From Bacillota bacterium (GTDB lineage Bacteria; Bacillota_I; Bacilli_A; RF39; UBA660): a DNA stretch of 64,000 nucleotides. Shown here piece after piece: positions 293 to 58,296 of this stretch. Location of the stretch: contig SVAW01000001.1 of the NCBI GenBank assembly GCA_015059195.1, forward strand, positions 81,575 to 145,574, in the 5' to 3' direction. The position numbers and the translations under genes are program-made. How positions within the stretch are numbered: position 1 is the first letter of the stretch; every line of letters starts with the position of its first letter. The notes under the pieces were generated by a model that saw nothing but the letters and a program-made list of their open reading frames with translations, had not been told where the DNA came from and ran no database searches.

Positions 293-350
293 TAATTGAC
301 AAACTGAACAAAGCGTAATAAAATTAAAATAGACAAGGGAGTAAGATAGT

Positions 351-416
351 ATGGTTAGAGTAAGTACAGAAAATAAATTAACAAAAATAACCACCTGGGG
401 GGGGGTATTTAAGTAA
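351..416 (+). CDS. Cassette mini-ORF L1, 21 aa MVRVSTENKLTKITTWGGVFK
   Basis: ATG lies 9 nt after AAGGGAG. The poly-G tract is read as TGG GGG GGG G. Stop TAA 414-416 lies in the 3' arm of the hairpin. Start, SD and N-terminus MVR(V/I) are conserved in all four copies. Confidence 0.45.
   Translation: MVRVSTENKLTKITTWGGVFK
397..405 (+). repeat. Homopolymeric G9 tract inside mini-ORF L1
   Basis: Direct count: ccacct + 9 G + tattt. I noticed no other G or C run of 8 or more outside the four cassettes. Confidence 0.9.
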
Positions 417-441
417 CCATACTATAATAAAAGAAATAAAT

Positions 442-498
442 AAACACGAAAGAATTTTAGAAAATCCATCGTTCTAAAATTTGTTTTCGTGTTTTTTT
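442..498 (+). terminator. Intrinsic terminator inside leader cassette 1
   Basis: aaacacgaaa-g-aattttagaa / loop aatccatcg / ttctaaaatt-tgt-tttcgtgttt, followed by a T-run. Two 10-bp helices are separated by a small internal loop. Confidence 0.8.
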
Positions 499-530
499 GT
501 ATGCCTTGTTAAGAATAGGAGGAAAGAAAG

Positions 531-1481
531 ATGAAGAAAAAAGGATTTACACTAATAGAATTACTAGCGGTAATAGTAGTACTAGCAATAATAGCACTAA
601 TAGCAACACCAATAGTAATGAATGTAATTAGTAACGCACAAAAAGGAGCAGCAGAAAGAAGTGCAGATAACTACGTAAAAGCAGTAGAAACATTAATCGC
701 AACAGAAAGATTAGATGGGGAACCAGTAGAAGATGGTACATACACAATAGATGAGAATGGAAACATTAAATCTGGTGATGTAGAATTAACAGTTGAGTTA
801 AATGGAACAAAACCAAATGGAGGAAGTATTGAAATTAAAGATGGACAAGTAGTAAAAAATGAAAGTTCAATCAAGGTAGGAGATTATACTGTTACTTTTG
901 AAGATGGAAAAGCTGAAGCGAAAGAATTAGCCAAACTACTAGATGTATGTCAATTAACAGATGGAGAGGAAAATGAAGTAGGAGCAGAGTACAATTGTAA
1001 CCTAGGAGATGGAGATAGAACATTCTATGTATTAGAAGCAGGAACAAGTAGTAAACCAGCAACATTAATACTAGAAGGAAACTATGATACGACGACACAA
1101 AGCTGGTGCGATCAAAATGGTGATTACCCTAATAATAGTTTATTATGCCAAGCAGATGGCTTAGCTGCTAAATTAGATGAAATAGCATTAGCATGGACAA
1201 AATTAGATAGAAGTCAAATAGGAATACCAAGTGCAGAACAAATCATGGTAGCAGATGGCCAAGCAGAAGATGCATATATAGATTATCCAATGTTAAATAA
1301 TGAATGGTTATGGAGTTGGGATAATGAAGCATGGGGAAATTCAGTGAACGGATATTGGACATCTACGCCTGTTGAGGGTGACTCTTATTCTATTTGGCTG
1401 GTATATGATGATGGTAGTGTTAATAATGATTTTGTGGATACTGACTTTGGTGTTCGACCAGTTCTAATGCTCTCAATTTAA
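531..1481 (+). CDS. Type IV prepilin-like protein with C-terminal DUF1566/FISUMP-like module (paralogue P1)
   Basis: N-terminus MKKKG|FTLIELLAVIVVLAIIALIA is a class III signal with Glu at +5. C-terminal motifs are NCNLGDGDRTFYVLEAGTSSKP, IGIPSAEQIM, GYWTST and FGVRPV. Strong RBS. Confidence 0.85.
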   Translation: MKKKGFTLIELLAVIVVLAIIALIATPIVMNVISNAQKGAAERSADNYVKAVETLIATERLDGEPVEDGTYTIDENGNIKSGDVELTVELNGTKPNGGSIEIKDGQVVKNESSIKVGDYTVTFEDGKAEAKELAKLLDVCQLTDGEENEVGAEYNCNLGDGDRTFYVLEAGTSSKPATLILEGNYDTTTQSWCDQNGDYPNNSLLCQADGLAAKLDEIALAWTKLDRSQIGIPSAEQIMVADGQAEDAYIDYPMLNNEWLWSWDNEAWGNSVNGYWTSTPVEGDSYSIWLVYDDGSVNNDFVDTDFGVRPVLMLSI

Positions 1482-2696: not shown

Positions 2697-3678
2697 TAGA
2701 GTTATAACCACCCATGAATTGGAAGAAGATACTTTTGAACAAAATATTCGCCCGGCTAGTTTAGATGAATATATTGGTCAGAGTGAGGTTAAAGATAACA
2801 TGTCAGTTTTTATAAAGGCTGCTAAAATGAGAGAAGAATCATTAGATCACGTGTTATTGTATGGACCACCAGGACTAGGCAAGACAACTTTGGCGTTTAT
2901 AATTGCTAATGAAATGGGAAGTAATATTAAAACATCTAGTGGACCTGCTATTGAGAAAAGCGGAGATTTAGCTGCGTTACTTTCAAGTTTGGAACCTGGA
3001 GATGTATTATTTATTGATGAAATTCATCGAATTCCTAGATATATTGAAGAAATTTTATATTCTGCTATGGAAGATTTTACACTTGATATCATTATTGGCA
3101 GTGATGCATCTAGCAGAAATATTAAAATTAATTTACCACCATTCACATTAGTTGGGGCAACAACTAGAGCAGGCGATTTAACAGGACCATTAAGAGATAG
3201 ATTTGGGATTGTGTCTAAGTTAAATTATTATACAGAATCAGAATTAACTGAAATTGTTAAACGAACCAGTAGAGTTTTAAATTGTGAAATAGACGATAAA
3301 GCTGCAGCGGAACTAGCAAGGCGTAGTAGAGGTACACCGCGTATTGCTAACAGATTATTTAAACGCGTGCGCGATTATGCGATGGTTATGGGAAGTGGGA
3401 TTATTGATTTAAAAATTACTAAAATTGCATTAGATAAACTTAAAGTTGATAATCTTGGCCTTGATCAAACAGATTACAATCTGTTAAGAGCTATTATTGA
3501 GCGATTTGATGGAGGACCTGTTGGAATAGAGGCTATTGCTTCCTCTATTGGCGAGGAGCAGACAACTATAGAAGATGTTTATGAACCATATTTGTTACAA
3601 CAAGGATTCTTAAAAAGAACTAATCGTGGTAGAGTAGTAACAGATAAAGCATATGAGCACTTAAATATCCAGAAATAA
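2686..3678 (+). CDS. ruvB: Holliday junction DNA helicase RuvB
   Basis: Walker [17 protein letters not shown] and the RuvB C-terminal domain. I prefer GTG 2686 (AGGAGG 7 nt upstream) over the TTG at 2668 in the ORF track. Confidence 0.9.
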
Positions 3679-3740
3679 TTATGTATTGACAAAATGAACA
3701 AGGCATAATAAAATTAAAATAGACAAGGGAGTAAGATAGT

Positions 3741-3803
3741 ATGGTTAGAGTAAGTACAAAATTTAATTCAACAAACCACCCGGGGGGGGGGGTATTTAAG
3801 TAA
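3741..3803 (+). CDS. Cassette mini-ORF L2, 20 aa MVRVSTKFNSTNHPGGGVFK
   Basis: Same SD and start as L1. G11 is read as CCG GGG GGG GGG G. It ends at the same TAA as L1. Confidence 0.45.
   Translation: MVRVSTKFNSTNHPGGGVFK
3782..3792 (+). repeat. Homopolymeric G11 tract inside mini-ORF L2
   Basis: Direct count: caccc + 11 G + tattt. Confidence 0.9.
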
Positions 3804-3828
3804 CCATACTATAATAAAAGAAATAAAT

Positions 3829-3885
3829 AAACACGAAAGAATTTTAGAAAATCCATCGTTCTAAAATTTGTTTTCGTGTTTTTTT
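3829..3885 (+). terminator. Intrinsic terminator inside leader cassette 2
   Basis: Same hairpin sequence as 442-498, followed by a T-run. Confidence 0.8.
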
Positions 3886-3986
3886 GTGTACCTTGTTAAA
3901 ACAAAAAAGTATATACTATTTGTATAATTTGAAGTTAAAAAGTACAAAATAAGATATACTGAATATGAAAATAGGAGGAGAGAAAG

Positions 3987-4943
3987 ATGAAGAAAAAAGG
4001 ATTTACATTAATAGAATTACTAGCGGTAATAGTAGTACTAGCAATAATAGCACTAATCGCAACACCAATAGTAATGAATGTAATTAGTAATGCTTCTAAG
4101 GGAGCAGCAGAAAGAAGTGCAGATAACTACGTAAAAGCAGTAGAAACATTAATCGCAACAAAAAGATTAGATGGAGAACCAGTAGAAGATGGGACATACA
4201 CAATAGGCACAGATGGGAACTTAAGTTTTGGTGATGTTGAGTTGAATGGAACAAAACCCAGTGGAGGAACAATTACAATTAAAGATGGACAAGTAGTTAA
4301 GGAAAATGCTTCAATAAAAGTAGGAGACTACACTGTAACATATGATGATGGAGCTGCAAAAGCCGATCAAATTATTGTATTGTGTAAAGCTATTGCTCCA
4401 ATACAACAAGAACTATATGATGCAACTACGAAAACAATGGTTCCAACAACCGTTGGAATACAAGCTACTTCATCAGCACCATACGCAGCGGGAGCAGTAT
4501 ATAGTTGTAATTTAGGTGATGGAGATAGAACATTTTATGTATTAAGTTCAACTAAAGACACAGTGTCGTTATTAATGGAGGAAAATATGGAAAGTCCAGC
4601 TACATGGTGTGCGACTGGCGATGATAATTCATGTAATGGAGATGGAGCAATCGCAAGTTTGAATTCGCAAACAAGTGGATGGTCAAAACTATTTAGTGTA
4701 AATGGTAAAGTTAGTTTACCGTCATACGATGATATGTATGGAGTTATAGGTGATGACTGGACTGCAATTAATTTGACTAATGTTGTTGCTAACAACGGAT
4801 ATTGGACATCTACGCTATGTGATTTTGAAATTACTGAGGCATGGATTGTAGAAAAAACTGATGTTACGACTACTGCTAGTGTTAACGCAGAATTCGGTAT
4901 CCGTCCAGTAATCACAATTTCCACAGAATATATATCACTTTAA
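3987..4943 (+). CDS. Type IV prepilin-like protein with divergent C-terminal DUF1566/FISUMP-like module (paralogue P2)
   Basis: The first ~110 codons are nearly identical to 51742-52650. C-terminal motifs are SCNLGDGDRTFYVL, VSLPSYDDMY, GYWTST and FGIRPV. Confidence 0.85.
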   Translation: MKKKGFTLIELLAVIVVLAIIALIATPIVMNVISNASKGAAERSADNYVKAVETLIATKRLDGEPVEDGTYTIGTDGNLSFGDVELNGTKPSGGTITIKDGQVVKENASIKVGDYTVTYDDGAAKADQIIVLCKAIAPIQQELYDATTKTMVPTTVGIQATSSAPYAAGAVYSCNLGDGDRTFYVLSSTKDTVSLLMEENMESPATWCATGDDNSCNGDGAIASLNSQTSGWSKLFSVNGKVSLPSYDDMYGVIGDDWTAINLTNVVANNGYWTSTLCDFEITEAWIVEKTDVTTTASVNAEFGIRPVITISTEYISL

Positions 4944-17524: not shown

Positions 17525-18001
17525 ATGAATATTATTAAAAAACATAAGTTTTTAGTATTGTTTATAAGCATTTTTATTGTTTTAATGATTATTGTTATTT
17601 TTGGAGTGATACAGTCAAACTCTTCTTCTGATAGTAACAGCAAGTACGGGAACAGATTAGTTGGAATAGAAAACATGCAAATTACTGATTCTAGGTTACA
17701 AACTGTTAAGGGAAACGTTTTAAGTGATAAAAGTGTGAATGATTTATCACATGATATAACAGGTAGAATAATTAAAATCTTTATTCAGGTCAAACCGGAA
17801 ACAGATGAAATAAAAATACAGTCATTAATGAATATAATTTTAGAAAATTTCACTGATGATGAGAAAAAATTTTATGATTTTCAGGTATTTATAACTAATG
17901 AGGTAGAAGAGACTGAGTTATATCCAATGATTGCATATAAACATCGTAATAATGTAGCTTTTACGATAACAAAGAAGGTAGGAGAAAAGAATGAAAAATA
18001 A
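17525..18001 (+). CDS. Membrane-anchored hypothetical protein
   Basis: N-terminal TM helix. It overlaps the start of the downstream GGDEF-like gene. Confidence 0.4.
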   Translation: MNIIKKHKFLVLFISIFIVLMIIVIFGVIQSNSSSDSNSKYGNRLVGIENMQITDSRLQTVKGNVLSDKSVNDLSHDITGRIIKIFIQVKPETDEIKIQSLMNIILENFTDDEKKFYDFQVFITNEVEETELYPMIAYKHRNNVAFTITKKVGEKNEK

Positions 18002-20054
18002 GAAATTATGGATTCCTATTATTGTAGGTTTGTTAATATTAGTAGTGGGAACTATTGTGTATTTTGTCGCTTTTAAAGAAGACAAAGATACTACGTTAAC
18101 ACTAATTGAAAAACAATGGATAGAAAAAAACAAAAGCAAATTAATTGATTTGTCTATTGTGAACAATATCCCAATGATAACTTATAATGGTGATGGAATA
18201 TTTTTTGATTTCTTAAGTGATTTAGAAGATGATACTAAGTTGGAATTTAATAAGGTAGCATATAAGCAAGGTGAAGAACCAAAAAGTGAGTATGCTTTGA
18301 AGATTGTTGAAAAGGCTTTAGAAAATCAAATACTTTTATATAGAGATAATTATGTATTAGTTACAAATGGTAATACTAAATATAATAAGTTAACAGAAAT
18401 TAAAGATTTAACAATTGGAGTTTTAAATTCGGATATTGAAAAGGTAAATACATATTTAAATGCTGAATCAAATCTTTTATTAAAATCATTTGATAATTAT
18501 ACGACAATGATTAGTGATTTAACAAATTCTGAAGCATCAAGTAAAACAGTAGATGCAATTGTATTACCTAGATTAATATATTTTAAAGATATAGTAGAAA
18601 ATTCAGATTTAAATATCGCTTATCATATTTCAGAAATCACACAAGATTATGTATTACAATTAGGTAATACCGATAAATTAAATGGTATTTTAGTAAAGTA
18701 TTATACTAAATGGGAGAAAGAGTCATATAATGATTCTTATCAGAATCAATTTTTAAATAATTATTTATCATTTTCAAATGTAGATGATATTACAAAAGTC
18801 GAATTTAAAAGCAAAAGATATTCTTATGGATTTGTTCAAAATAGTCCATATGATTTAATCTATGATGGTAGATACGTAGGAATAAATCATATCTTTATGG
18901 CAAAATTTTCTGACTTTGCGGATATAGAAATAAGCTATAAAAAATATGATGATATTGATTCACTAGTTCATGATTTTAATGAAAACAAATTGGATATTAT
19001 ATTTAACAATGCAACATATTCAACATTTAATATGGATGTTTTAAATACGGTTTCTGCATATGATGAAAAAATAGCTGTTATAACCCATCTAGGAAATAAT
19101 TTAGTCGTTAATTCGATTAATTCATTAAAAAATCATGAGGTTATGGCGGTAGCCTCAAGTAAGATTGCAGATATATTAATTAAAAAGGGAATAAACGTGA
19201 AGTCATATGAAAATGTAGATACTTTATTAAGAAATGCAAATAAGAACAGCGTCATTGTTTTAGATTCTGCAGCATATGATTATTATTCTAATAATAGTTT
19301 AAAAAATTATACTACTGCTTATATTTCTGATTTGGGAGAAGATTATACTTTTACAATTAGAAAAACAGCGGATAATGATCTTTTTGCTAATTTATTAAAT
19401 TTCTATTTATCTTTCAATAATGAACAAGAATTAACAAAAGAGGGATATTATGAAGTTATGGAATTAGCAAGACACCCATTCTCACTAAAGAGCTTAGTAT
19501 TATTCATTATTGGTGTTTTAAGCGCCGGAGTATTAACGTTCTTAGGTTTCTTATTGTTGAAGCCAAAGAAAAAGGTAAAGAAAGTTAATTTATCAAAGGA
19601 AGACAAGTTAAAGTATATTGATATGTTAACGTCATTGAAAAATCGTAATTACTTAAATGATAATATTGAAAAGTGGGACGCTAGTGAAGTGTATCCGCAA
19701 ACTATTGTTATCATGGATTTAAATAATGTCGCCTACATTAATGATAATTATGGTCATGCTGAAGGAGATAAAGTTATTGGAGAGGCTGCTAATATACTAA
19801 TTACTACTCAGATGCCAAATAGTGATATAATTCGTACTAATGGTAATGAATTCTTAATATATATGGTTGGATATGATGAAAAACAAGTTGTAAGTTATGT
19901 TCGCAAACTAAATAAAGAATTTAAATCATTATCACATGGATTTGGGGCTGCGATTGGTTATAGTATGATCACAGATGCTATTAAAACGATCGATGATGCA
20001 ATTAATGAAGCCACTGCTTCAATGCGCGAAATTAAAGAAGAAATTAACTATTAA
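17991..20054 (+). CDS. Membrane receptor with large extracytoplasmic domain and degenerate GGDEF domain
   Basis: TM, ~480-aa exterior region, TM, then a GGDEF-fold region (DLNNVAYINDNYGHAEGD). The signature reads NGNEF instead of GG[DE]EF. Confidence 0.7.
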   Translation: MKNKKLWIPIIVGLLILVVGTIVYFVAFKEDKDTTLTLIEKQWIEKNKSKLIDLSIVNNIPMITYNGDGIFFDFLSDLEDDTKLEFNKVAYKQGEEPKSEYALKIVEKALENQILLYRDNYVLVTNGNTKYNKLTEIKDLTIGVLNSDIEKVNTYLNAESNLLLKSFDNYTTMISDLTNSEASSKTVDAIVLPRLIYFKDIVENSDLNIAYHISEITQDYVLQLGNTDKLNGILVKYYTKWEKESYNDSYQNQFLNNYLSFSNVDDITKVEFKSKRYSYGFVQNSPYDLIYDGRYVGINHIFMAKFSDFADIEISYKKYDDIDSLVHDFNENKLDIIFNNATYSTFNMDVLNTVSAYDEKIAVITHLGNNLVVNSINSLKNHEVMAVASSKIADILIKKGINVKSYENVDTLLRNANKNSVIVLDSAAYDYYSNNSLKNYTTAYISDLGEDYTFTIRKTADNDLFANLLNFYLSFNNEQELTKEGYYEVMELARHPFSLKSLVLFIIGVLSAGVLTFLGFLLLKPKKKVKKVNLSKEDKLKYIDMLTSLKNRNYLNDNIEKWDASEVYPQTIVIMDLNNVAYINDNYGHAEGDKVIGEAANILITTQMPNSDIIRTNGNEFLIYMVGYDEKQVVSYVRKLNKEFKSLSHGFGAAIGYSMITDAIKTIDDAINEATASMREIKEEINY

Positions 20055-41024: not shown

Positions 41025-42038
41025 TTGGGTGATAATGTGGCAAAAAAATTTAAAGGTAAAAAGAGTAAAATTAAAATTTTAAAATATGCCGTTATATTAA
41101 TCGTTATATATTTAATATATTCATTATTTTCGTTTTTACTTTTGAATATTAAGTTAGTAGATAATAATGAAGATTTTATTAGAAACTTGTTAGGGGATTC
41201 TAATTATCATATGTTTTATGAAAAAAGAAGTCAAAATGTGATTTATCGTATTGCTAGCATTTTAACTAATTTCAATCTTAAAGAGCCATTATCAATTTTG
41301 GAAAATAGTTTTGGCTATGAAAGCGTAGATAATTCTAACTCCAATTTAGTTTATAATGGGGATTATGAAGTTGATAATTCAATACAGTCTATAATAGATT
41401 ATATGAGTAAGGATGAAGATATTAAAGAACCTCTAGTATATATTTATAATTCACATCAAACGGAAGGATATAGTAAAGAATATTTAAAAAATGAAAATAT
41501 TACACCAAATGTGTTAATGGCAGGATATCTTTTGAAGGAAAAGTTGGATAAATTAGGGGTCCCTACAATAATAGAAGAATCAAACATTTCAGAGTTTTTA
41601 AGAATCAATAATTGGAATTATAATGCTAGCTATAAAGCGAGCAGATTTTATTTGTTAGATGTAATGGAAAAGTATCCTAGTATTAAATTATTTATAGATT
41701 TGCATAGGGATGCACTTTCTAAAAATAGTTCTACAGTAACTCTTAATAATAAAAAGTATGCGAAAGTGTTATTTGTGGTTGGAAAGGAACACAAAGATTA
41801 TCAACAAAATCTAAATCTTGCTAATCAATTAAATGATCTGATTAAGGCTAAATATCCAACGCTAACAAGAGGTGTTTTACAAAAAGAGGGTTCTAACGTA
41901 AATGGAATATATAATCAGGACTTAAGTTCCAATATTATCTTATTAGAACTAGGTGGTCATGAAAACACGATAACAGAAGTATTAAATACTATAGAAATTA
42001 TATCTATAATTATAAAGGAGCATATAAATGAAAACTGA
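41025..42038 (+). CDS. spoIIP: Stage II sporulation protein P
   Basis: YIYNSHQTEGY, IDLHRDA and LELGG motifs. An N-terminal TM helix is present. The start may be the GTG at 41037. Confidence 0.8.
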   Translation: MGDNVAKKFKGKKSKIKILKYAVILIVIYLIYSLFSFLLLNIKLVDNNEDFIRNLLGDSNYHMFYEKRSQNVIYRIASILTNFNLKEPLSILENSFGYESVDNSNSNLVYNGDYEVDNSIQSIIDYMSKDEDIKEPLVYIYNSHQTEGYSKEYLKNENITPNVLMAGYLLKEKLDKLGVPTIIEESNISEFLRINNWNYNASYKASRFYLLDVMEKYPSIKLFIDLHRDALSKNSSTVTLNNKKYAKVLFVVGKEHKDYQQNLNLANQLNDLIKAKYPTLTRGVLQKEGSNVNGIYNQDLSSNIILLELGGHENTITEVLNTIEIISIIIKEHINEN

Positions 42039-42372
42039 AACTAAAATTAAACGCAGAAATAAAATATTTAGGTGGACAATGTTTTTCCTTTTTCTTCTTT
42101 TTTTAACATTGTATCTATCTCAAGCTACTGGATATTATGAATATGAACAAAGTAGAAAAACAGCTTTTACAGAAGAGCAAATAAAACAATTTGAACAAGA
42201 TGTAAAAGATGGGAAAGAAATAGATGTCAACTCATATTTAGAAAATACGAATAAAAATTATCAAAACAATATATCGAAAGCTACGCTTAGTATATCTGAG
42301 GCCATATCAAAATATATGAAATTAGGAATCGAAAAAATGTTTGAAGGTATAGCCAAAATAATTGAGGAGTAA
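42028..42372 (+). CDS. YqxA-like small membrane protein (by position after spoIIP)
   Basis: 114 aa with an N-terminal TM helix, overlapping the spoIIP end. B. subtilis has yqxA in this position. Confidence 0.45.
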   Translation: MKTETKIKRRNKIFRWTMFFLFLLFLTLYLSQATGYYEYEQSRKTAFTEEQIKQFEQDVKDGKEIDVNSYLENTNKNYQNNISKATLSISEAISKYMKLGIEKMFEGIAKIIEE

Positions 42373-42385
42373 TGGATGATTACCA

Positions 42386-42443
42386 AAACATGAAAGAATT
42401 TTAGAGATTACGTTATTCTAAAATTTGTTTTCATGTTTTTTTT
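42386..42443 (+). terminator. Intrinsic terminator related in sequence to the pilin-cassette terminator
   Basis: aaacatgaaa-g-aattttaga...ttctaaaatt-tgt-tttcatgttttttt. The scaffold matches 442-498, with a compensatory C-G to T-A change and a different loop. Confidence 0.8.
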
Positions 42444-50706: not shown

Positions 50707-51108
50707 ATGAATAAAAGAGGATTTACACTTGTAGAGTTAGTGGCAATAATTACACTCCTTGCGGTAATATTAATGATAGTTGTTCCAACAGTCGGGACAT
50801 CCATTAAAAATGCTCGTGAAAACTCATATCTGAAGCAAATTGATTTGATAGAAAAGGCGGCTAAAAATTTTGGAGTAGAGAATGACCACCTTCTTCCTGA
50901 ATTTAATTCAAATCAAATTATAACGATAGATTTTAATACATTATATACTTCGGGTTATTTAAAAGATAAAGCACCTATGAATCCCAAAACAGAAGAGGGG
51001 TTAACTGGTTGTGTGAAAGTTTCATATAATTCTGATTATAACCAATATGAGTATAAATATATTGATAATTTAGTAGAGTGTGATAACTATAATATAAATA
51101 ACAAGTAG
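50707..51108 (+). CDS. Small type IV pilin/pseudopilin-like protein
   Basis: MNKRG|FTLVELVAIITLLAVILMIVVP. The C-terminus ...GCVKVSYNSDYNQYEYKY is shared with its neighbour. Confidence 0.8.
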   Translation: MNKRGFTLVELVAIITLLAVILMIVVPTVGTSIKNARENSYLKQIDLIEKAAKNFGVENDHLLPEFNSNQIITIDFNTLYTSGYLKDKAPMNPKTEEGLTGCVKVSYNSDYNQYEYKYIDNLVECDNYNINNK

Positions 51109-51116
51109 GTGATAAA

Positions 51117-51515
51117 ATGAAAAAAGGCTTTACACTAGTAGAACTGCTTGCGGTTTTGTCAATTTTGGGGATATTAGCGGTGATTATAATTCCATCCGTA
51201 GCTACTACTATAAAAAATTCAAGAGTTGCTGCCTATGATAAACAGCTTTATGTTTTAGCTACGGCCACAGAAAAATGGGGAACTCAGCACCTAAACGAAC
51301 TTCCTGAGACAACATCTAACAACATAGTTGCAGTTGATTTTGAAACACTATATCAAGCTGGGGAAATTGCTTCTTATCCTGTACAAAACCCAATTACTGG
51401 GAACGACTTAGAAGGCTGTATCTTAATTTCGTATAACTTGCAATATAAACAATATGAGTACAAATATTCTGATAATTTAGCAGTATGCGATGATAACCAT
51501 TATAATAATGATTGA
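51117..51515 (+). CDS. Small type IV pilin/pseudopilin-like protein (tandem paralogue)
   Basis: MKKG|FTLVELLAVLSILGILAVIIIP ... GCILISYNLQYKQYEYKY. Confidence 0.8.
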   Translation: MKKGFTLVELLAVLSILGILAVIIIPSVATTIKNSRVAAYDKQLYVLATATEKWGTQHLNELPETTSNNIVAVDFETLYQAGEIASYPVQNPITGNDLEGCILISYNLQYKQYEYKYSDNLAVCDDNHYNND

Positions 51516-51566
51516 CAAAATGAACAAGGCATAATAAAATTAAAATAGACAAGGGAGTAAGATAGT

Positions 51567-51623
51567 ATGGTTAGAGTAAGTACAAAATTTAATTCAACAA
51601 ACCACCTGGGGGGGGGTATTTAA
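51567..51623 (+). CDS. Cassette mini-ORF L3, 18 aa MVRVSTKFNSTNHLGGGI
   Basis: Same SD and start. G9 is read as CTG GGG GGG GGT. It ends at the alternative TAA (ATT TAA), a different frame from L1 and L2. Confidence 0.45.
   Translation: MVRVSTKFNSTNHLGGGI
51608..51616 (+). repeat. Homopolymeric G9 tract inside mini-ORF L3
   Basis: Direct count: cacct + 9 G + tattt. The flanks are otherwise almost identical to copy 2, which has G11. Confidence 0.9.
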
Positions 51624-51652
51624 GTAACCATACTATAACTAGAAAAATAAAT

Positions 51653-51709
51653 AAACACGAAAGAATTTTAGAAAATCCATCGTTCTAAAATTTGTTTTCG
51701 TGTTTTTTT
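51653..51709 (+). terminator. Intrinsic terminator inside leader cassette 3
   Basis: Same hairpin as 442-498, followed by a T-run. Confidence 0.8.
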
Positions 51710-51741
51710 GTGTACCTTGTTAAGAATAGGAGGAGAATTTT

Positions 51742-52650
51742 ATGAAAAAGAAAGGATTTACATTAATTGAGTTACTAGCGGTAATAGTAGTACTAGCAAT
51801 AATAGCGTTAATCGCAACACCAATAGTAATGAATGTAATTAGTAATGCTTCTAAGGGAGCAGCAGAAAGAAGTGCAGATAATTATATTAAAGCAGTAGAA
51901 ACATTAATCGCAACAAAAAGATTAGATGGAGAACCAGTAGAAGATGGTGTATACACAATAAGGGCAGATGGGAACCTTAAATTTGGTAATGTTGTGTTAA
52001 ATGGAACAAAACCAAGTGGAGGAAGTATTGAAATTAAAGATGGACAAGTAGTTAAAAATGAAAGTTCAATCCAGGTGGGCGACTACGTAGTAAGTTATAA
52101 AGATGGAAAAGCAGAAGCAAAAGGATTAGCGAAACTAGACGATGTATGTCAATTAACAGATGGAGAAAAAAATGAAGTAGGAGCAGAGTACAATTGTAAC
52201 CTAGGAGATGGAGATAGAACATTCTATGTATTAGAAGCAGGAACAAGTAGTAAACCAGTAACATTAATATTAGAAGAAAACTATGATGTGGAAACTCTAG
52301 CATGGTGCGATCCTGATGTAGAACATTCTGAAGAAGAGGGTTGTAATGCAGATGGATTAACAGAAAAATTTAATTCGATTAGAGGAGCATGGTCGAAATT
52401 GGATAAAAAACAAATAGCTTTACCAACTTATGAGCAAATTTATGCGGTTAATGATGATGAATCATTCAAAAACGTTGGTTGGTTATATGATAACTTGGAG
52501 GAATCATCAGCACCATACGGTTATTGGCTTTCTGATTCATTGAATTGGGATGAAACATGGTTTGTTGACTATACAGGAATTATGAATTTTGATTCAACAT
52601 CGATAGCTAATAGGTATGGTGTTCGCCCAGTAGTAATGCTTCATATTTAG
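51742..52650 (+). CDS. Type IV prepilin-like protein with DUF1566/FISUMP-like C-terminal module (paralogue P4)
   Basis: The N-terminal ~190 codons form a mosaic of P1-like and P2-like sequence. C-terminal motifs are IALPTYEQIY, GYWLSD and YGVRPV. Confidence 0.85.
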   Translation: MKKKGFTLIELLAVIVVLAIIALIATPIVMNVISNASKGAAERSADNYIKAVETLIATKRLDGEPVEDGVYTIRADGNLKFGNVVLNGTKPSGGSIEIKDGQVVKNESSIQVGDYVVSYKDGKAEAKGLAKLDDVCQLTDGEKNEVGAEYNCNLGDGDRTFYVLEAGTSSKPVTLILEENYDVETLAWCDPDVEHSEEEGCNADGLTEKFNSIRGAWSKLDKKQIALPTYEQIYAVNDDESFKNVGWLYDNLEESSAPYGYWLSDSLNWDETWFVDYTGIMNFDSTSIANRYGVRPVVMLHI

Positions 52651-57487: not shown

Positions 57488-57587
57488 AATTTCACTTCCA
57501 TATTTATTATATCGTAAATTAGGATAAATTTGGTTGGCAAAATGAACAAAGCGTAATAAAATTAAAATAGACGAGGAGTAAGATAGT

Positions 57588-57716
57588 ATGGTTAGAATAA
57601 ATGTAAAAAAACAAATAACAAAAAAGCTCCTGGGGGGGGGGAGGTATTTAAGTAATCATACTATAACTAGAAAAATAAATAAACACGAAATAATTTTAGA
57701 AAATCCATCGTTCTAA
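57588..57716 (+). CDS. Cassette mini-ORF L4, 42 aa MVRINVKKQITKKLLGGGRYLSNHTITRKINKHEIILENPSF (read-through frame)
   Basis: G10-A-GG puts the ribosome in the third frame. The ORF runs through the hairpin 3' arm and the terminator 5' arm and loop. It stops at TAA 57714-57716 inside the terminator 3' arm. Confidence 0.4.
   Translation: MVRINVKKQITKKLLGGGRYLSNHTITRKINKHEIILENPSF
57632..57641 (+). repeat. Homopolymeric G10 tract (then AGG) inside mini-ORF L4
   Basis: Direct count: ctcct + 10 G + a + gg + tattt. Confidence 0.9.
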
Positions 57717-57736
57717 AGTTTGTTTTCGTGTTTTTT
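57681..57736 (+). terminator. Intrinsic terminator inside leader cassette 4
   Basis: Same scaffold as the other copies, with one wobble substitution and a T6 run. Confidence 0.75.
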
Positions 57737-57768
57737 GTATGCCTTGTTAAGAATAGGAGGAAAGAAAG

Positions 57769-58296
57769 ATGAAGAAAAAAGGATTTACACTAATTGAATT
57801 ACTAGCGGTAATAGTAGTACTAGCAATAATAGCATTAATAGCATTAATAGCATTAATAGCAACAGAAAGATTAGATGGGGAACCAGTAGAAGCTGGTACA
57901 AACAGCAAACCAGTAACGTTATTACTATCAGGACTCTATGATGGAACACCTATAAACTGGGTAGATGCTCACACTACCAAATTAGATGAAATGGCACGTG
58001 CTTGGACAAAATTAGATAGAAGTCATATAGGATTACCAAGCTTGGAACAACTTCTAGTAGCAGATGGTCAATCAGCAGATGATTATATTCTTGGTGATAC
58101 CATGTTAGGCAGACAATGGTTAACTCAATGTGATCATGAGGAGTGGACTAATACAATACACGCATATTGGACATCTACTTCTATCAATGATAATACTGCA
58201 GTTGATATTCCTGTTGGTGGTATGTTGGAGAGCTCTAGTATTACAGTCGTTGGTGATGTAGGTATTCGCCCAGTTATAACATTATCTATAAATTAG
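57769..58296 (+). CDS. Internally deleted pilin-like paralogue P5 (prepilin helix joined to C-terminal module; possibly a pseudogene)
   Basis: MKKKG|FTLIELLAVIVVLAIIALIALIALIA-TERLDGEPVE-AGTNSKPVTLLL... Two in-frame deletions relative to P1 and a 9-bp tandem expansion at 57822-57857. It retains IGLPSLEQLL, AYWTST and GIRPV. Confidence 0.6.
   Translation: MKKKGFTLIELLAVIVVLAIIALIALIALIATERLDGEPVEAGTNSKPVTLLLSGLYDGTPINWVDAHTTKLDEMARAWTKLDRSHIGLPSLEQLLVADGQSADDYILGDTMLGRQWLTQCDHEEWTNTIHAYWTSTSINDNTAVDIPVGGMLESSSITVVGDVGIRPVITLSIN
57822..57857 (+). repeat. 9-bp tandem repeat (agcattaat x3 plus one imperfect unit) in the P5 N-terminal helix
   Basis: agcaataat agcattaat agcattaat agcattaat. P1 has only two imperfect units at the homologous site. 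Confidence 0.85.

Follow-up and report, generated by a model that had tools for sequence, protein, structure and literature searches.

Poly-G tracts in leader open reading frames as candidate phase-variable attenuators of type IV pilin-like genes in uncultured gut Bacilli

The closest described system is the leader of the pil1 and pil3 loci of Streptococcus gallolyticus, where phase variation is combined with attenuation and the leader open reading frame (ORF) carries 13 to 22 GCAGA repeats (Danne et al. 2014, PMC3894217). Expression is low when the leader stop codon lies at least 28 nt before a stem-loop, whereas out-of-frame variants with a stop in or beyond the stem-loop are highly expressed; mutation of the ATG, added stop codons and deletion of the terminator all behave as an attenuation model predicts (PMC3894217). 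Here, we describe a cassette of about 235 bp that occurs four times in a 64,000-nucleotide stretch of DNA from a Bacillota bacterium (assembly GCA_015059195.1, contig SVAW01000001.1, positions 81,575 to 145,574 of the forward strand), hereafter called the window. Each copy lies directly 5' of a type IV pilin-like gene. We propose, with a probability of roughly 0.7, that the cassettes are slipped-strand, phase-variable leader-peptide attenuators, one for each pilin-like gene. The state of each would most likely be governed by how many residues a poly-G tract in its leader ORF contains, so that the variation would be stochastic.

The window cassettes and the S. gallolyticus leaders have the same order of elements: a promoter, a leader ORF that is led by a Shine-Dalgarno (SD) sequence and contains a simple repeat, an intrinsic terminator, and a promoterless pilus gene. 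In both, a change in the repeat shifts the leader stop from a site upstream of the terminator (at least 28 nt there, 25 to 29 nt here) to a site inside or after it, and the distances in the window cassettes agree with the S. gallolyticus rule. Both concern more than one locus per genome in a gut-associated Gram-positive bacterium, and the outcome, which in our case is a proposal, is a surface filament switched on or off stochastically. However, there is no sequence homology between the two systems. The repeat is a homopolymer of 9 to 11 G residues here and a pentanucleotide there, and the genes are type-IV-pilin-like here, whereas the S. gallolyticus pili are sortase assembled. Only one of the three frames enters the terminator in our cassettes, whereas both out-of-frame states give long peptides in S. 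gallolyticus. Our cassettes also have two extra RNA elements, hairpin 1, which encloses the leader ATG, the tract and the short-frame stops, and a helix called P0, and they form a dispersed module with four copies in 64 kb in which the switch is predicted from sequence. From these comparisons, the window cassette appears to be an analogue, not a homologue, of the pil1/pil3 leader. No second phase switch built from a leader-peptide repeat and a terminator was found among the papers that cite the S. gallolyticus work or share its vocabulary. This kind of switch thus seems to be known from one genus, and the homopolymer, the type IV pilin target, the two extra RNA elements, the multiple copies and the occurrence in several gut lineages would be new here.

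The four cassettes could be aligned over their whole length (Table 1). Similarity began 1 to 3 nt 5' of the -35 hexamer and extended into the pilin coding sequence. In the 3.9 kb scanned for sigma-70-like promoters, the top two matches were those of copies 1 and 2, each with 11/12 positions; the copy 1 promoter was invariant in the four-copy alignment except that the -35 hexamer of copy 4 is TTGGCA. In every copy, the ATG of a mini-ORF stands 9 to 10 nt after a GGAG. An earlier note on this DNA, made by a model from the letters alone, had picked out the four copies, this promoter with its 17-nt spacer, the SD and ATG, a long hairpin with the ATG in its 5' arm and a stop codon in its 3' arm, and a strong two-helix terminator with a T-run, and all of these were borne out. 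Its assignment of the four downstream genes as pilin-like was also upheld: the prepilin N-terminal motif (G|FTLxE followed by a hydrophobic helix) was found above the Pfam and NCBIfam cut-offs (PF07963 and TIGR02532) in 4/4 genes. What the note had overlooked, so that its description of the cassette was incomplete, was a poly-G tract in each mini-ORF.

These tracts are the only runs of G or C of at least 8 nt in the 64 kb, whose G+C content is 27 to 32% (29% overall). GGGGGGGG has 11 overlapping matches on the two strands of the window, all of them within these tracts, compared with 0.19 expected from dinucleotide shuffles. The tract begins 73 nt after the -10 hexamer, inside the leader ORF and not between the -35 and -10. 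When each copy was translated with its tract shortened or lengthened, the frame layout was identical in all four. Two of the three frames are closed by a TAA within the 3' arm of hairpin 1, giving peptides of 18 to 22 aa; from these stops, 29 and 25 nt remain to the start of the terminator. The third frame stays open for about 23 further codons (..YLSNHTIIKEINKHERILENPSF), up to a TAA that lies in the inner terminator helix, on its 3' arm, 36 nt into the terminator and 17 nt short of the end of its hairpin. As they stand in the window, copies 1, 2 and 3 have a short frame and copy 4 has the long one. The leader is conserved at its SD and ATG, whereas the peptide before the tract varies in sequence and length (MVRVSTENK.., MVRINVKK.., MVILNKN.., MVKDVKIN.. 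and MLANSKW). Only the Met-Val start is kept in it, and this start is fixed by the hairpin. An unconserved peptide of this kind fits an ORF that serves as a spacer or ruler, not one that encodes a functional peptide.

According to the mechanism that we propose, a strong constitutive promoter would start the leader RNA at about position 331 in copy 1, and a ribosome would load at the leader SD and ATG and translate the mini-ORF with its poly-G tract. Slipped-strand mispairing during replication would alter the tract by one G and so select one of the three frames. In two of them, the ribosome would be released by a TAA codon within the 3' arm of hairpin 1, 25 to 29 nt before the terminator; the two-helix terminator would then fold, the transcript would end at the U-tract, and the pilin gene would be OFF or expressed at a low level. 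In the third frame, the ribosome would read about 23 more codons through an A-rich spacer and the 5' arm of the terminator and stop at the TAA in the 3' arm. The hairpin would thus be blocked while RNA polymerase is on the U-tract, leading to read-through and a pilin gene that is ON. With a tract of its own before each paralogue, a population would display a shifting subset of pilin-like surface proteins. The position of the ribosome on a leader ORF also decides terminator formation in the trp and his attenuators and in the attenuators of resistance genes in Firmicutes (PMC3894217). In contrast to these, the cassettes have no regulatory codon run, drug-dependent stalling or antiterminator hairpin, and the ribosome position would be set genetically, by the reading frame, and not by physiology.

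The tract length was compared between the window and its relatives (loci outside the window are given L numbers below). The closest relatives of the cassette were found in JGI and ENA metagenomes, and the exact protein of pilin-like gene 1 is entered at NCBI as "MAG: ... Firmicutes bacterium", from a metagenome-assembled genome (MAG). Pilins that were 58 to 100% identical to that of gene 1 carried the same cassette, and a cassette profile used with nhmmer recovered all copies. At three orthologous loci, a difference of one G, with nothing else of note, toggled the cassette between the short and the long frame in different assemblies. At the locus of copy 3, which has the order dnaE, two small pilins, cassette, 302-aa pilin, SSPI and LemA, the window has G9 (short frame) and L117 to L119 have G10 (long frame), the cassette being otherwise identical. 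At the SecDF locus, L018 and L019 have G11 (short) and L022 has G10 (long), and at the miaA locus, L020 has G10 (short) and L021 has G11 (long). P0126 was considered as the ON allele of copy 2 and was rejected since it sits at a different locus (ApbE-NusG_II); it was left out of the orthologue comparison. The long-frame peptide of copy 3 was called on 7 contigs, compared with 18 that carry its pilin, and the 42-aa long-frame peptide of copy 4 (P0121) was called on 19 contigs, compared with 24 that carry its pilin. At the copy 1 locus, whose pilin is on 10 contigs, neither of the two predicted long-frame peptides (from G8 and G11 forms) was found; the G8 form was absent from the collection, and the G11 form was present on a single contig, L021 at the miaA locus. 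A protein search with the leader peptides gave three clusters only, and exact look-up of the peptides was more useful. Interrupted tracts were found as well, GGGGTGGGGG in L003, which is in the long frame, and GGTGGGG in L030, which is in a short frame; they look as "locked" alleles would. L025 is a decayed copy with a mutated leader SD, an interrupted tract, a mutated ribosome-binding site (RBS) for the pilin gene and a pilin remnant of 76 aa.

These length differences also bear on transcriptional slippage as an alternative. Bacterial RNA polymerase is known to slip on long homopolymers, and slippage on G9 to G11 would mix the leader frames within one allele and give graded, non-heritable read-through from the same anatomy. 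It would also explain some pilin production from a copy in a short frame. We consider it unlikely to be the explanation in its own right. The tract differs in length at the DNA level at orthologous loci between assemblies, and heritable variation therefore exists whatever RNA polymerase does. Slippage would thus be a modifier compatible with slipped-strand switching, to which it may add non-heritable leakiness, and not an alternative to it.

The next question is how the pilin genes are transcribed. From the end of the U-tract to the AGGAGG of the pilin RBS, the gap is 18 nt in copies 1, 3 and 4. With so short a gap, there is no space for a pilin promoter after the terminator, as the earlier note had argued, and pilin transcription in these copies must therefore read through the cassette terminator, that is, by attenuation. 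Copy 2 has an insert of about 69 nt between the 3' strand of P0 and the pilin RBS, which appears as a gap in the alignment. The insert contains a TATAAT at 3923-3928 without a good -35, and nothing in it reached 9/12 in the promoter scan. The same insert is present in L018 to L022. Inserts of 69 to 110 nt with TATAAT-like boxes, located between P0 and the pilin RBS, were seen in copy 2, L018 to L022, L029 and L030, always 3' of the 3' strand of P0. In principle, the cassette could be an independent small RNA gene of about 168 nt that merely lies upstream of pilin genes expressed from elsewhere. It is a complete promoter-to-terminator unit with a stable fold, and copy 2 and its related loci do have TATAAT-containing extra sequence before the pilin RBS. 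We hold this to be highly improbable. All of the more than 30 cassette instances recovered, in the window and in its relatives, lie directly before a pilin-like gene and point in its direction, an association with pilin genes that the earlier note had proposed to check. Furthermore, copies 1, 3 and 4 leave no space for a pilin promoter, P0 joins the 5' end of the leader to sequence after the terminator, which implies a read-through RNA, and cassette and pilin have decayed together in L025.

The leader is strongly structured. In copy 1, the sequence from 331 to 545 folds at -48.8 kcal/mol, compared with -29.3 ± 3.1 kcal/mol in shuffles (z-score, -6.3). The terminator hairpin of copy 1, followed by U7, has a folding energy of -17.3 kcal/mol (z-score, -5.0). 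The z-scores for the terminator were between -5.0 and -6.3 at a modest G+C content, and the 50-nt terminator core occurs 4 times in the window at up to 2 mismatches, compared with 0 expected. In copy 4, most substitutions keep the pairing through G-U, as the earlier note had claimed for all of them; the G-to-T change at 57691 turns the closing G-U of the inner helix into U-U. A stand-alone version of the terminator was detected at the 3' end of the ORF at 42028-42372 (nhmmer E=3e-7; model positions 112 to 168). It is built from the same two helices, with one pair of the outer helix changed in a compensatory way from C-G to U-A, and has another loop; it folds at -16 kcal/mol (z-score, -4.1) and is placed where the terminator of an ordinary gene belongs, so that the module exists outside cassettes. 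Because of this copy after an ordinary gene and of compensatory changes in diverged cassettes (see below), the cassette terminator is, judged by sequence, a genuine terminator with a structure under selection. The two clades' terminators were compared by hand, as a MAFFT alignment misplaces them by 2 nt.

Hairpin 1 folds at -19.3 kcal/mol in copy 1 (z-score, -3.05), and its equivalent in copy 4 folds at -17 kcal/mol (z-score, -3.5). The 5' arm contains the leader ATG and the 3' arm contains both short-frame stops. The arms are nearly invariant, with wobble changes only and an A.C mismatch in L003, and the interior is free to vary in sequence and length. Covariation support for hairpin 1 is weak, and because the arms are almost invariant no conclusion was drawn from it. 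The proposal in the earlier note that RNA structure is under selection thus stands for the terminator and does not extend to hairpin 1. A P0 duplex was predicted in all cassettes, at -9.6 to -14.2 kcal/mol. In our own hand-anchored alignment, 87% of the cells pair, compared with 36 to 52% when the partner is slid by 1 to 3 columns. Two pairs changed on both sides, from A-U to U-A and from C-G to A-U; since two clades are compared, this amounts to about one event per pair, and we regard the covariation support for P0 as moderate. P0 can form only in RNA that extends past the terminator. It may silence the leader SD and give the read-through mRNA a base-paired, protected 5' end, and hairpin 1 may pause RNA polymerase or limit leader translation to the first ribosome.

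A structured leader raises the question of a signal-responsive attenuator or riboswitch, in which the leader RNA would bind a ligand, a protein or a tRNA and the poly-G would be merely structural. In Clostridioides difficile, a cyclic di-GMP riboswitch that acts on a terminator precedes the type IV pilus gene pilA1, and an invertible switch at cwpV creates a terminator and so forms a heritable phase switch. The cassettes resemble both in having a surface or pilus gene under the control of an intrinsic terminator within its 5' leader, and a strong promoter, a structured leader, a strong terminator without a downstream promoter, and a GGDEF protein encoded in the window would all suit a riboswitch. 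However, Rfam gave no match. For the whole window at the gathering threshold, tRNA was the only match, and for copy 1 at E values up to 10, only microRNA and small RNA noise far under the gathering scores was returned. This agrees with the earlier note, in which the element was not recognized as any known riboswitch or leader class. In addition, the interior of hairpin 1 is variable and its arms are without covariation, the cassettes from rabbit gut (see below) have no hairpin 1 yet keep the ORF, poly-G and terminator, and constrained folds with a ribosome footprint gave no antiterminator helix that competes with the terminator. A riboswitch would also leave unexplained the confinement of long G runs in the window to ORFs that are led by an SD and have three frames with such different ends. 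We therefore consider it very unlikely. Of the conditional attenuation or antitermination that the earlier note had suggested, the dependence on read-through is retained, and a signal-responsive class is not, the poly-G length being the most likely input. An invertible-DNA switch was also considered, as the 12-bp inverted repeats that form the hairpin 1 arms flank about 56 bp; it was rejected because the G run is on the pilin coding strand in all of the more than 30 instances. The cassettes thus differ from both C. difficile systems, having neither a riboswitch aptamer nor a DNA inversion.

Poly-G tracts before genes of this family were also found in other gut MAGs. A search by pilin alignment, with one genome per species, gave 80 loci in MAGs of uncultured gut "Bacilli" and "Tenericutes", none of which exceeded 43% full-length identity. 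In 11 of the 80, a G run of at least 9 nt lies just upstream of the pilin-like gene, in one of three designs. Type A (L029, L030, L033 and L050, joined by L126 from a further scan described below; all from Hadza and Nepal human-gut MAGs) is 70 to 75% identical to the window cassette by blastn. Its hairpin arms, which surround the ATG and the tract, are those of the window cassette, and its terminator differs. In the outer helix of this terminator, two pairs show compensatory changes (G-C to A-U and A-U to G-C), and the inner helix is wholly replaced and still perfect, with TCTAGACT/AGTCTAGA compared with GAATTTTAGAA/TTCTAAAATTT in the window. The short frames of type A stop 27 and 16 nt before the terminator and the long frame stops 34 nt inside it; its P0 strands are AGUAAAGGUA and UACCUUUACU. 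Type C (L057, L078 and L105, from rabbit-gut MAGs) has an SD, a shorter ORF (MLANSKWGG..) with G9 and a simpler terminator, without hairpin 1. It is located 150 to 240 nt upstream of position 1501 of these loci, and the surroundings of its tract, TGGGGGGGGGTATTTAG, resemble the window cassette. The long-frame stop of type C abuts or overlaps the 5' foot of the terminator, and the short-frame stops are upstream of the terminator. The frame logic thus appears, from these sequences, to survive sequence turnover in types A and C.

Type B (L051, L079, L093 and L099) has G10 to G11 in the promoter spacer of genes of the same pilin-like family. The layout is TTGACA, 3 to 7 nt, the G run, 1 to 7 nt, and TAAAAT or TACAAT (at about position 2086 in L099). 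In Neisseria porA and opc and in Bordetella fim, phase variation is due to a homopolymer in the promoter spacer. Judged from its layout, type B is this classical arrangement, in which the length of a poly-G or poly-C controls transcription of a surface gene. In contrast, the window tract is in the leader, 73 nt downstream of the -10. Distant pilin homologues (43 to 46% identical; L004, L014, L028 and L031) have plain promoters and no cassette, and the cassette is confined to part of a large family with more than 6000 relatives. As far as these sequences tell, the family has repeatedly come under poly-G control, and two of the three designs put the tract in a leader ORF before a terminator. In a second metagenome scan, with the 5' arm plus G7, 13 loci were returned; 12 were chance matches and L126 was the only real cassette. 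The 3'-arm pattern GTATTTAAGTAAYCAYACTATAA had 0 exact matches in viral, genome and metagenome contig collections, and the lineage of the window is therefore absent from these three collections; the same scan of viral contigs gave no sign of a phage origin.

Several points weigh against the slipped-strand attenuator. When one sequence is considered by itself, the frame layout departs little from chance, since 6.3% of dinucleotide shuffles give one frame open for at least 23 codons with the others closed within 4. The weight of the case is therefore carried by the enrichment of poly-G, by conservation across the cassettes compared and by the differences in tract length. The latter are assembly-level calls and not reads, and homopolymer lengths from short reads are error prone. 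In L133, the tract (about 150 nt upstream of position 401) reads GGGGGGG-NNNNNNNNNN-GGGG with ten N's, from either heterogeneity or sequencing difficulty. Copy 4, alone in the window in having its leader in the long frame, stands before a truncated pilin gene; most assemblies show it in that same frame, so that it is possibly not a switching copy. Translation of the mini-ORF could be limited by the position of its ATG within the hairpin 1 stem, and an insert of the copy 2 type, with its TATAAT, may be a weak promoter of its own that bypasses the attenuator. Transcription and translation are reportedly coupled only weakly in Bacillus subtilis, as Johnson and colleagues are said to have found in 2020. 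This counts against the mechanism because antitermination needs a ribosome that keeps pace with RNA polymerase; the S. gallolyticus precedent nevertheless shows that such a mechanism can work in a Firmicute. Lastly, starting from the anatomy, the frame layout, the tract-length differences at orthologous loci and the recurring logic of the diverged cassettes, we infer the transcription start, the translation of the mini-ORF, antitermination by the ribosome, the switching rate and the phenotype.

Table 1. Coordinates of the cassettes, their elements and the associated genes in the window (position 1 is the first nucleotide of the 64,000)
Feature	Position	Strand	Details
Copy 1 cassette	296-530	+	
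Copy 1 promoter	296-324	+	-35 TTGACA 296-301, 17-nt spacer, -10 TAAAAT 319-324
Copy 1 transcription start (predicted)	~331	+	
Copy 1 helix P0, 5' strand	332-338	+	GACAAGG; overlaps leader SD; in minimum free energy fold of whole leader
Copy 1 leader mini-ORF	335-416	+	SD AAGGGAG 335-341, ATG 351-353, stop TAA 414-416 in G9 frame (21 aa)
Copy 1 stops in other frames		+	Second short frame, TAA 410-412; long frame, TAA 475-477 (41-42 aa)
Copy 1 hairpin 1	346-425	+	Lower stem 346-357/414-425, upper stem 361-367/405-411
Copy 1 poly-G	397-405	+	G9, within mini-ORF, top of hairpin 1
Copy 1 intrinsic terminator	442-498	+	Hairpin 442-494: outer helix 442-451/485-494, inner helix 452-462/472-482; U-tract 492-498
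Copy 1 helix P0, 3' strand	505-511	+	CCUUGUU; 6 nt after U-tract, just 5' of pilin RBS
Copy 1 pilin RBS	517-522	+	AGGAGG
Pilin-like gene 1	531-1481	+	316 aa; PF07963, PF19789, TIGR02532; C-terminal DUF6273-like domain
Copy 2 cassette, aligned span	3686-3986	+	
Copy 2 cassette, promoter to U-tract	3686-3885	+	Promoter 3686-3714, ATG 3741, G11 3782-3792, short-frame stop 3801-3803, terminator 3829-3881, U-tract to 3885
Copy 2-specific insert	3903-3971	+	~69 nt, between P0 3' strand and pilin RBS
Pilin-like gene 2	3987-4943	+	318 aa; PF07963, TIGR02532
Stand-alone terminator	42385-42441	+	3' end of ORF 42028-42372
Copy 3 cassette	51512-51741	+	Promoter 51512-51540, ATG 51567, G9 51608-51616, short-frame stop 51621-51623, terminator 51653-51705, U-tract to 51709
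Pilin-like gene 3	51742-52650	+	302 aa; PF07963, TIGR02532; on 18 contigs in public collection
Copy 4 cassette	57534-57768	+	-35 TTGGCA 57534-57539, -10 TAAAAT 57557-57562, ATG 57588, terminator 57681-57733
Copy 4 long-frame leader	57588-57716	+	42 aa; stop inside terminator 3' arm
Copy 4 poly-G	57632-57641	+	G10, then AGG
Pilin-like gene 4	57769-58296	+	Truncated, 175 aa, internal deletion

The pilin paralogues are nearly identical from the cassette through the first ~120 codons, whereas their C-terminal parts diverge. The earlier note had suggested that cassette plus gene spreads as a unit. The near-identity of this 5' block and the joint decay in L025 speak for it; the 3' parts of the genes and the flanks differ and do not fit such a unit. 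A related possibility is that the cassette and the 5' coding region mainly provide homology for recombination or gene conversion between pilin paralogues, which would yield antigenic variation as variable 3' parts are exchanged, as in Neisseria pilE/pilS. Such a role could coexist with a switch. It would account for the contrast between the shared 5' block and the divergent C termini, and it matches several rearranged contexts: the identical pilin P0037 has one upstream neighbor in L018 and another in L020; L108, L109 and L110 share their upstream genes and the cassette and differ in the pilin and the genes downstream; and L134 (versus L133) has another upstream context for pilin 3. However, the repeat is about 600 bp, longer than a short read, so that the mosaics may be chimeras that mis-assembly explains equally well, and many contigs end at the cassette. 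Part of the apparent reshuffling of cassettes and pilins between contigs could thus be assembly chimerism. Recombination also leaves the poly-G, the ORF and the terminator unexplained, and we regard it as a doubtful principal function, though one with some chance of being right.

In Neisseria, the CTCTT repeats of opa and the poly-G of pilC lie in the signal-peptide coding region of the gene itself, and changes in them frameshift the protein. The slipped-strand attenuators that we favor would share with these the dispersed paralogous surface-protein genes, each with its own slippage-prone tract, and an independent, combinatorial switching. They would differ in that the tract is in a separate leader ORF, the proposed action is on termination, and the pilin ORF stays intact.

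In the PDB, the pilin-like proteins matched solved type IV pilins over the N-terminal helix and nowhere else. At the C termini, a motif (..GYWTST..AW.V...G......GVRPVI.) is conserved between pilin-like gene 1 (1340-1481) and the other pilin-like genes, and it touches the DUF6273 region. DUF6273 features in the literature on phage receptor-binding proteins that are targeted by diversity-generating retroelements. By analogy, the C terminus of the pilin-like proteins may be a ligand-binding tip domain. At the deletion junction of pilin-like gene 4, about 3.5 tandem copies of ATAGCATTA lie near 57828-57860, within the region that encodes the hydrophobic helix. Two small genes that resemble pilins or pseudopilins, at 50707-51108 (133 aa) and 51117-51515 (132 aa), lie between dnaE and cassette 3 and may encode minor pilins. 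Among about 40 scanned of the 92 window ORFs of at least 80 aa, no prepilin peptidase, PilB-type ATPase or PilC platform protein was found.

The cassettes abut their upstream genes. The ruvB stop ends at 3678, 7 nt 5' of the -35 of copy 2 (the earlier note had counted 8), and the stop of the upstream pilin gene (51513-51515) overlaps the -35 of copy 3, as had been stated there. The neighbors of the cassettes are ordinary housekeeping genes, namely those for ruvA, ruvB, RNase HII, dnaE, LemA, a radical SAM protein and SpoVAC/AD. A 687-aa protein with a C-terminal GGDEF (diguanylate cyclase) domain is encoded at 17991-20054, and no link between it and the cassettes was found.

If the proposed switch is true, it would be an independent, non-homologous version of the S. 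gallolyticus mechanism, and gating of a terminator by a repeat in a leader ORF would then be a general solution and not a curiosity. The cassette may even be a portable RNA switch module with several layers, present in several uncultured gut Bacilli lineages, in which the frame switch is combined with a gate or pause at hairpin 1 and with a P0 that silences the leader and stabilizes the mRNA. Duplication of this module and the adjoining 5' part of the gene to many chromosomal sites would give an opa-like combinatorial repertoire of lectin-tipped type IV pilins that is reshuffled by recombination; we offer this larger picture tentatively and think it rather improbable as a whole. With the pilin ORFs intact and the switch in "intergenic" DNA, elements of this kind would be missed by screens for repeats within genes or between promoter hexamers. 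The compact module of about 235 bp could also be reused as a synthetic stochastic switch. For the bacteria themselves, the finding points to uncultured, spore-forming gut Bacillota whose surface varies stochastically in adhesin-like type IV pilins, which would bear on colonization, immune evasion and phage evasion.

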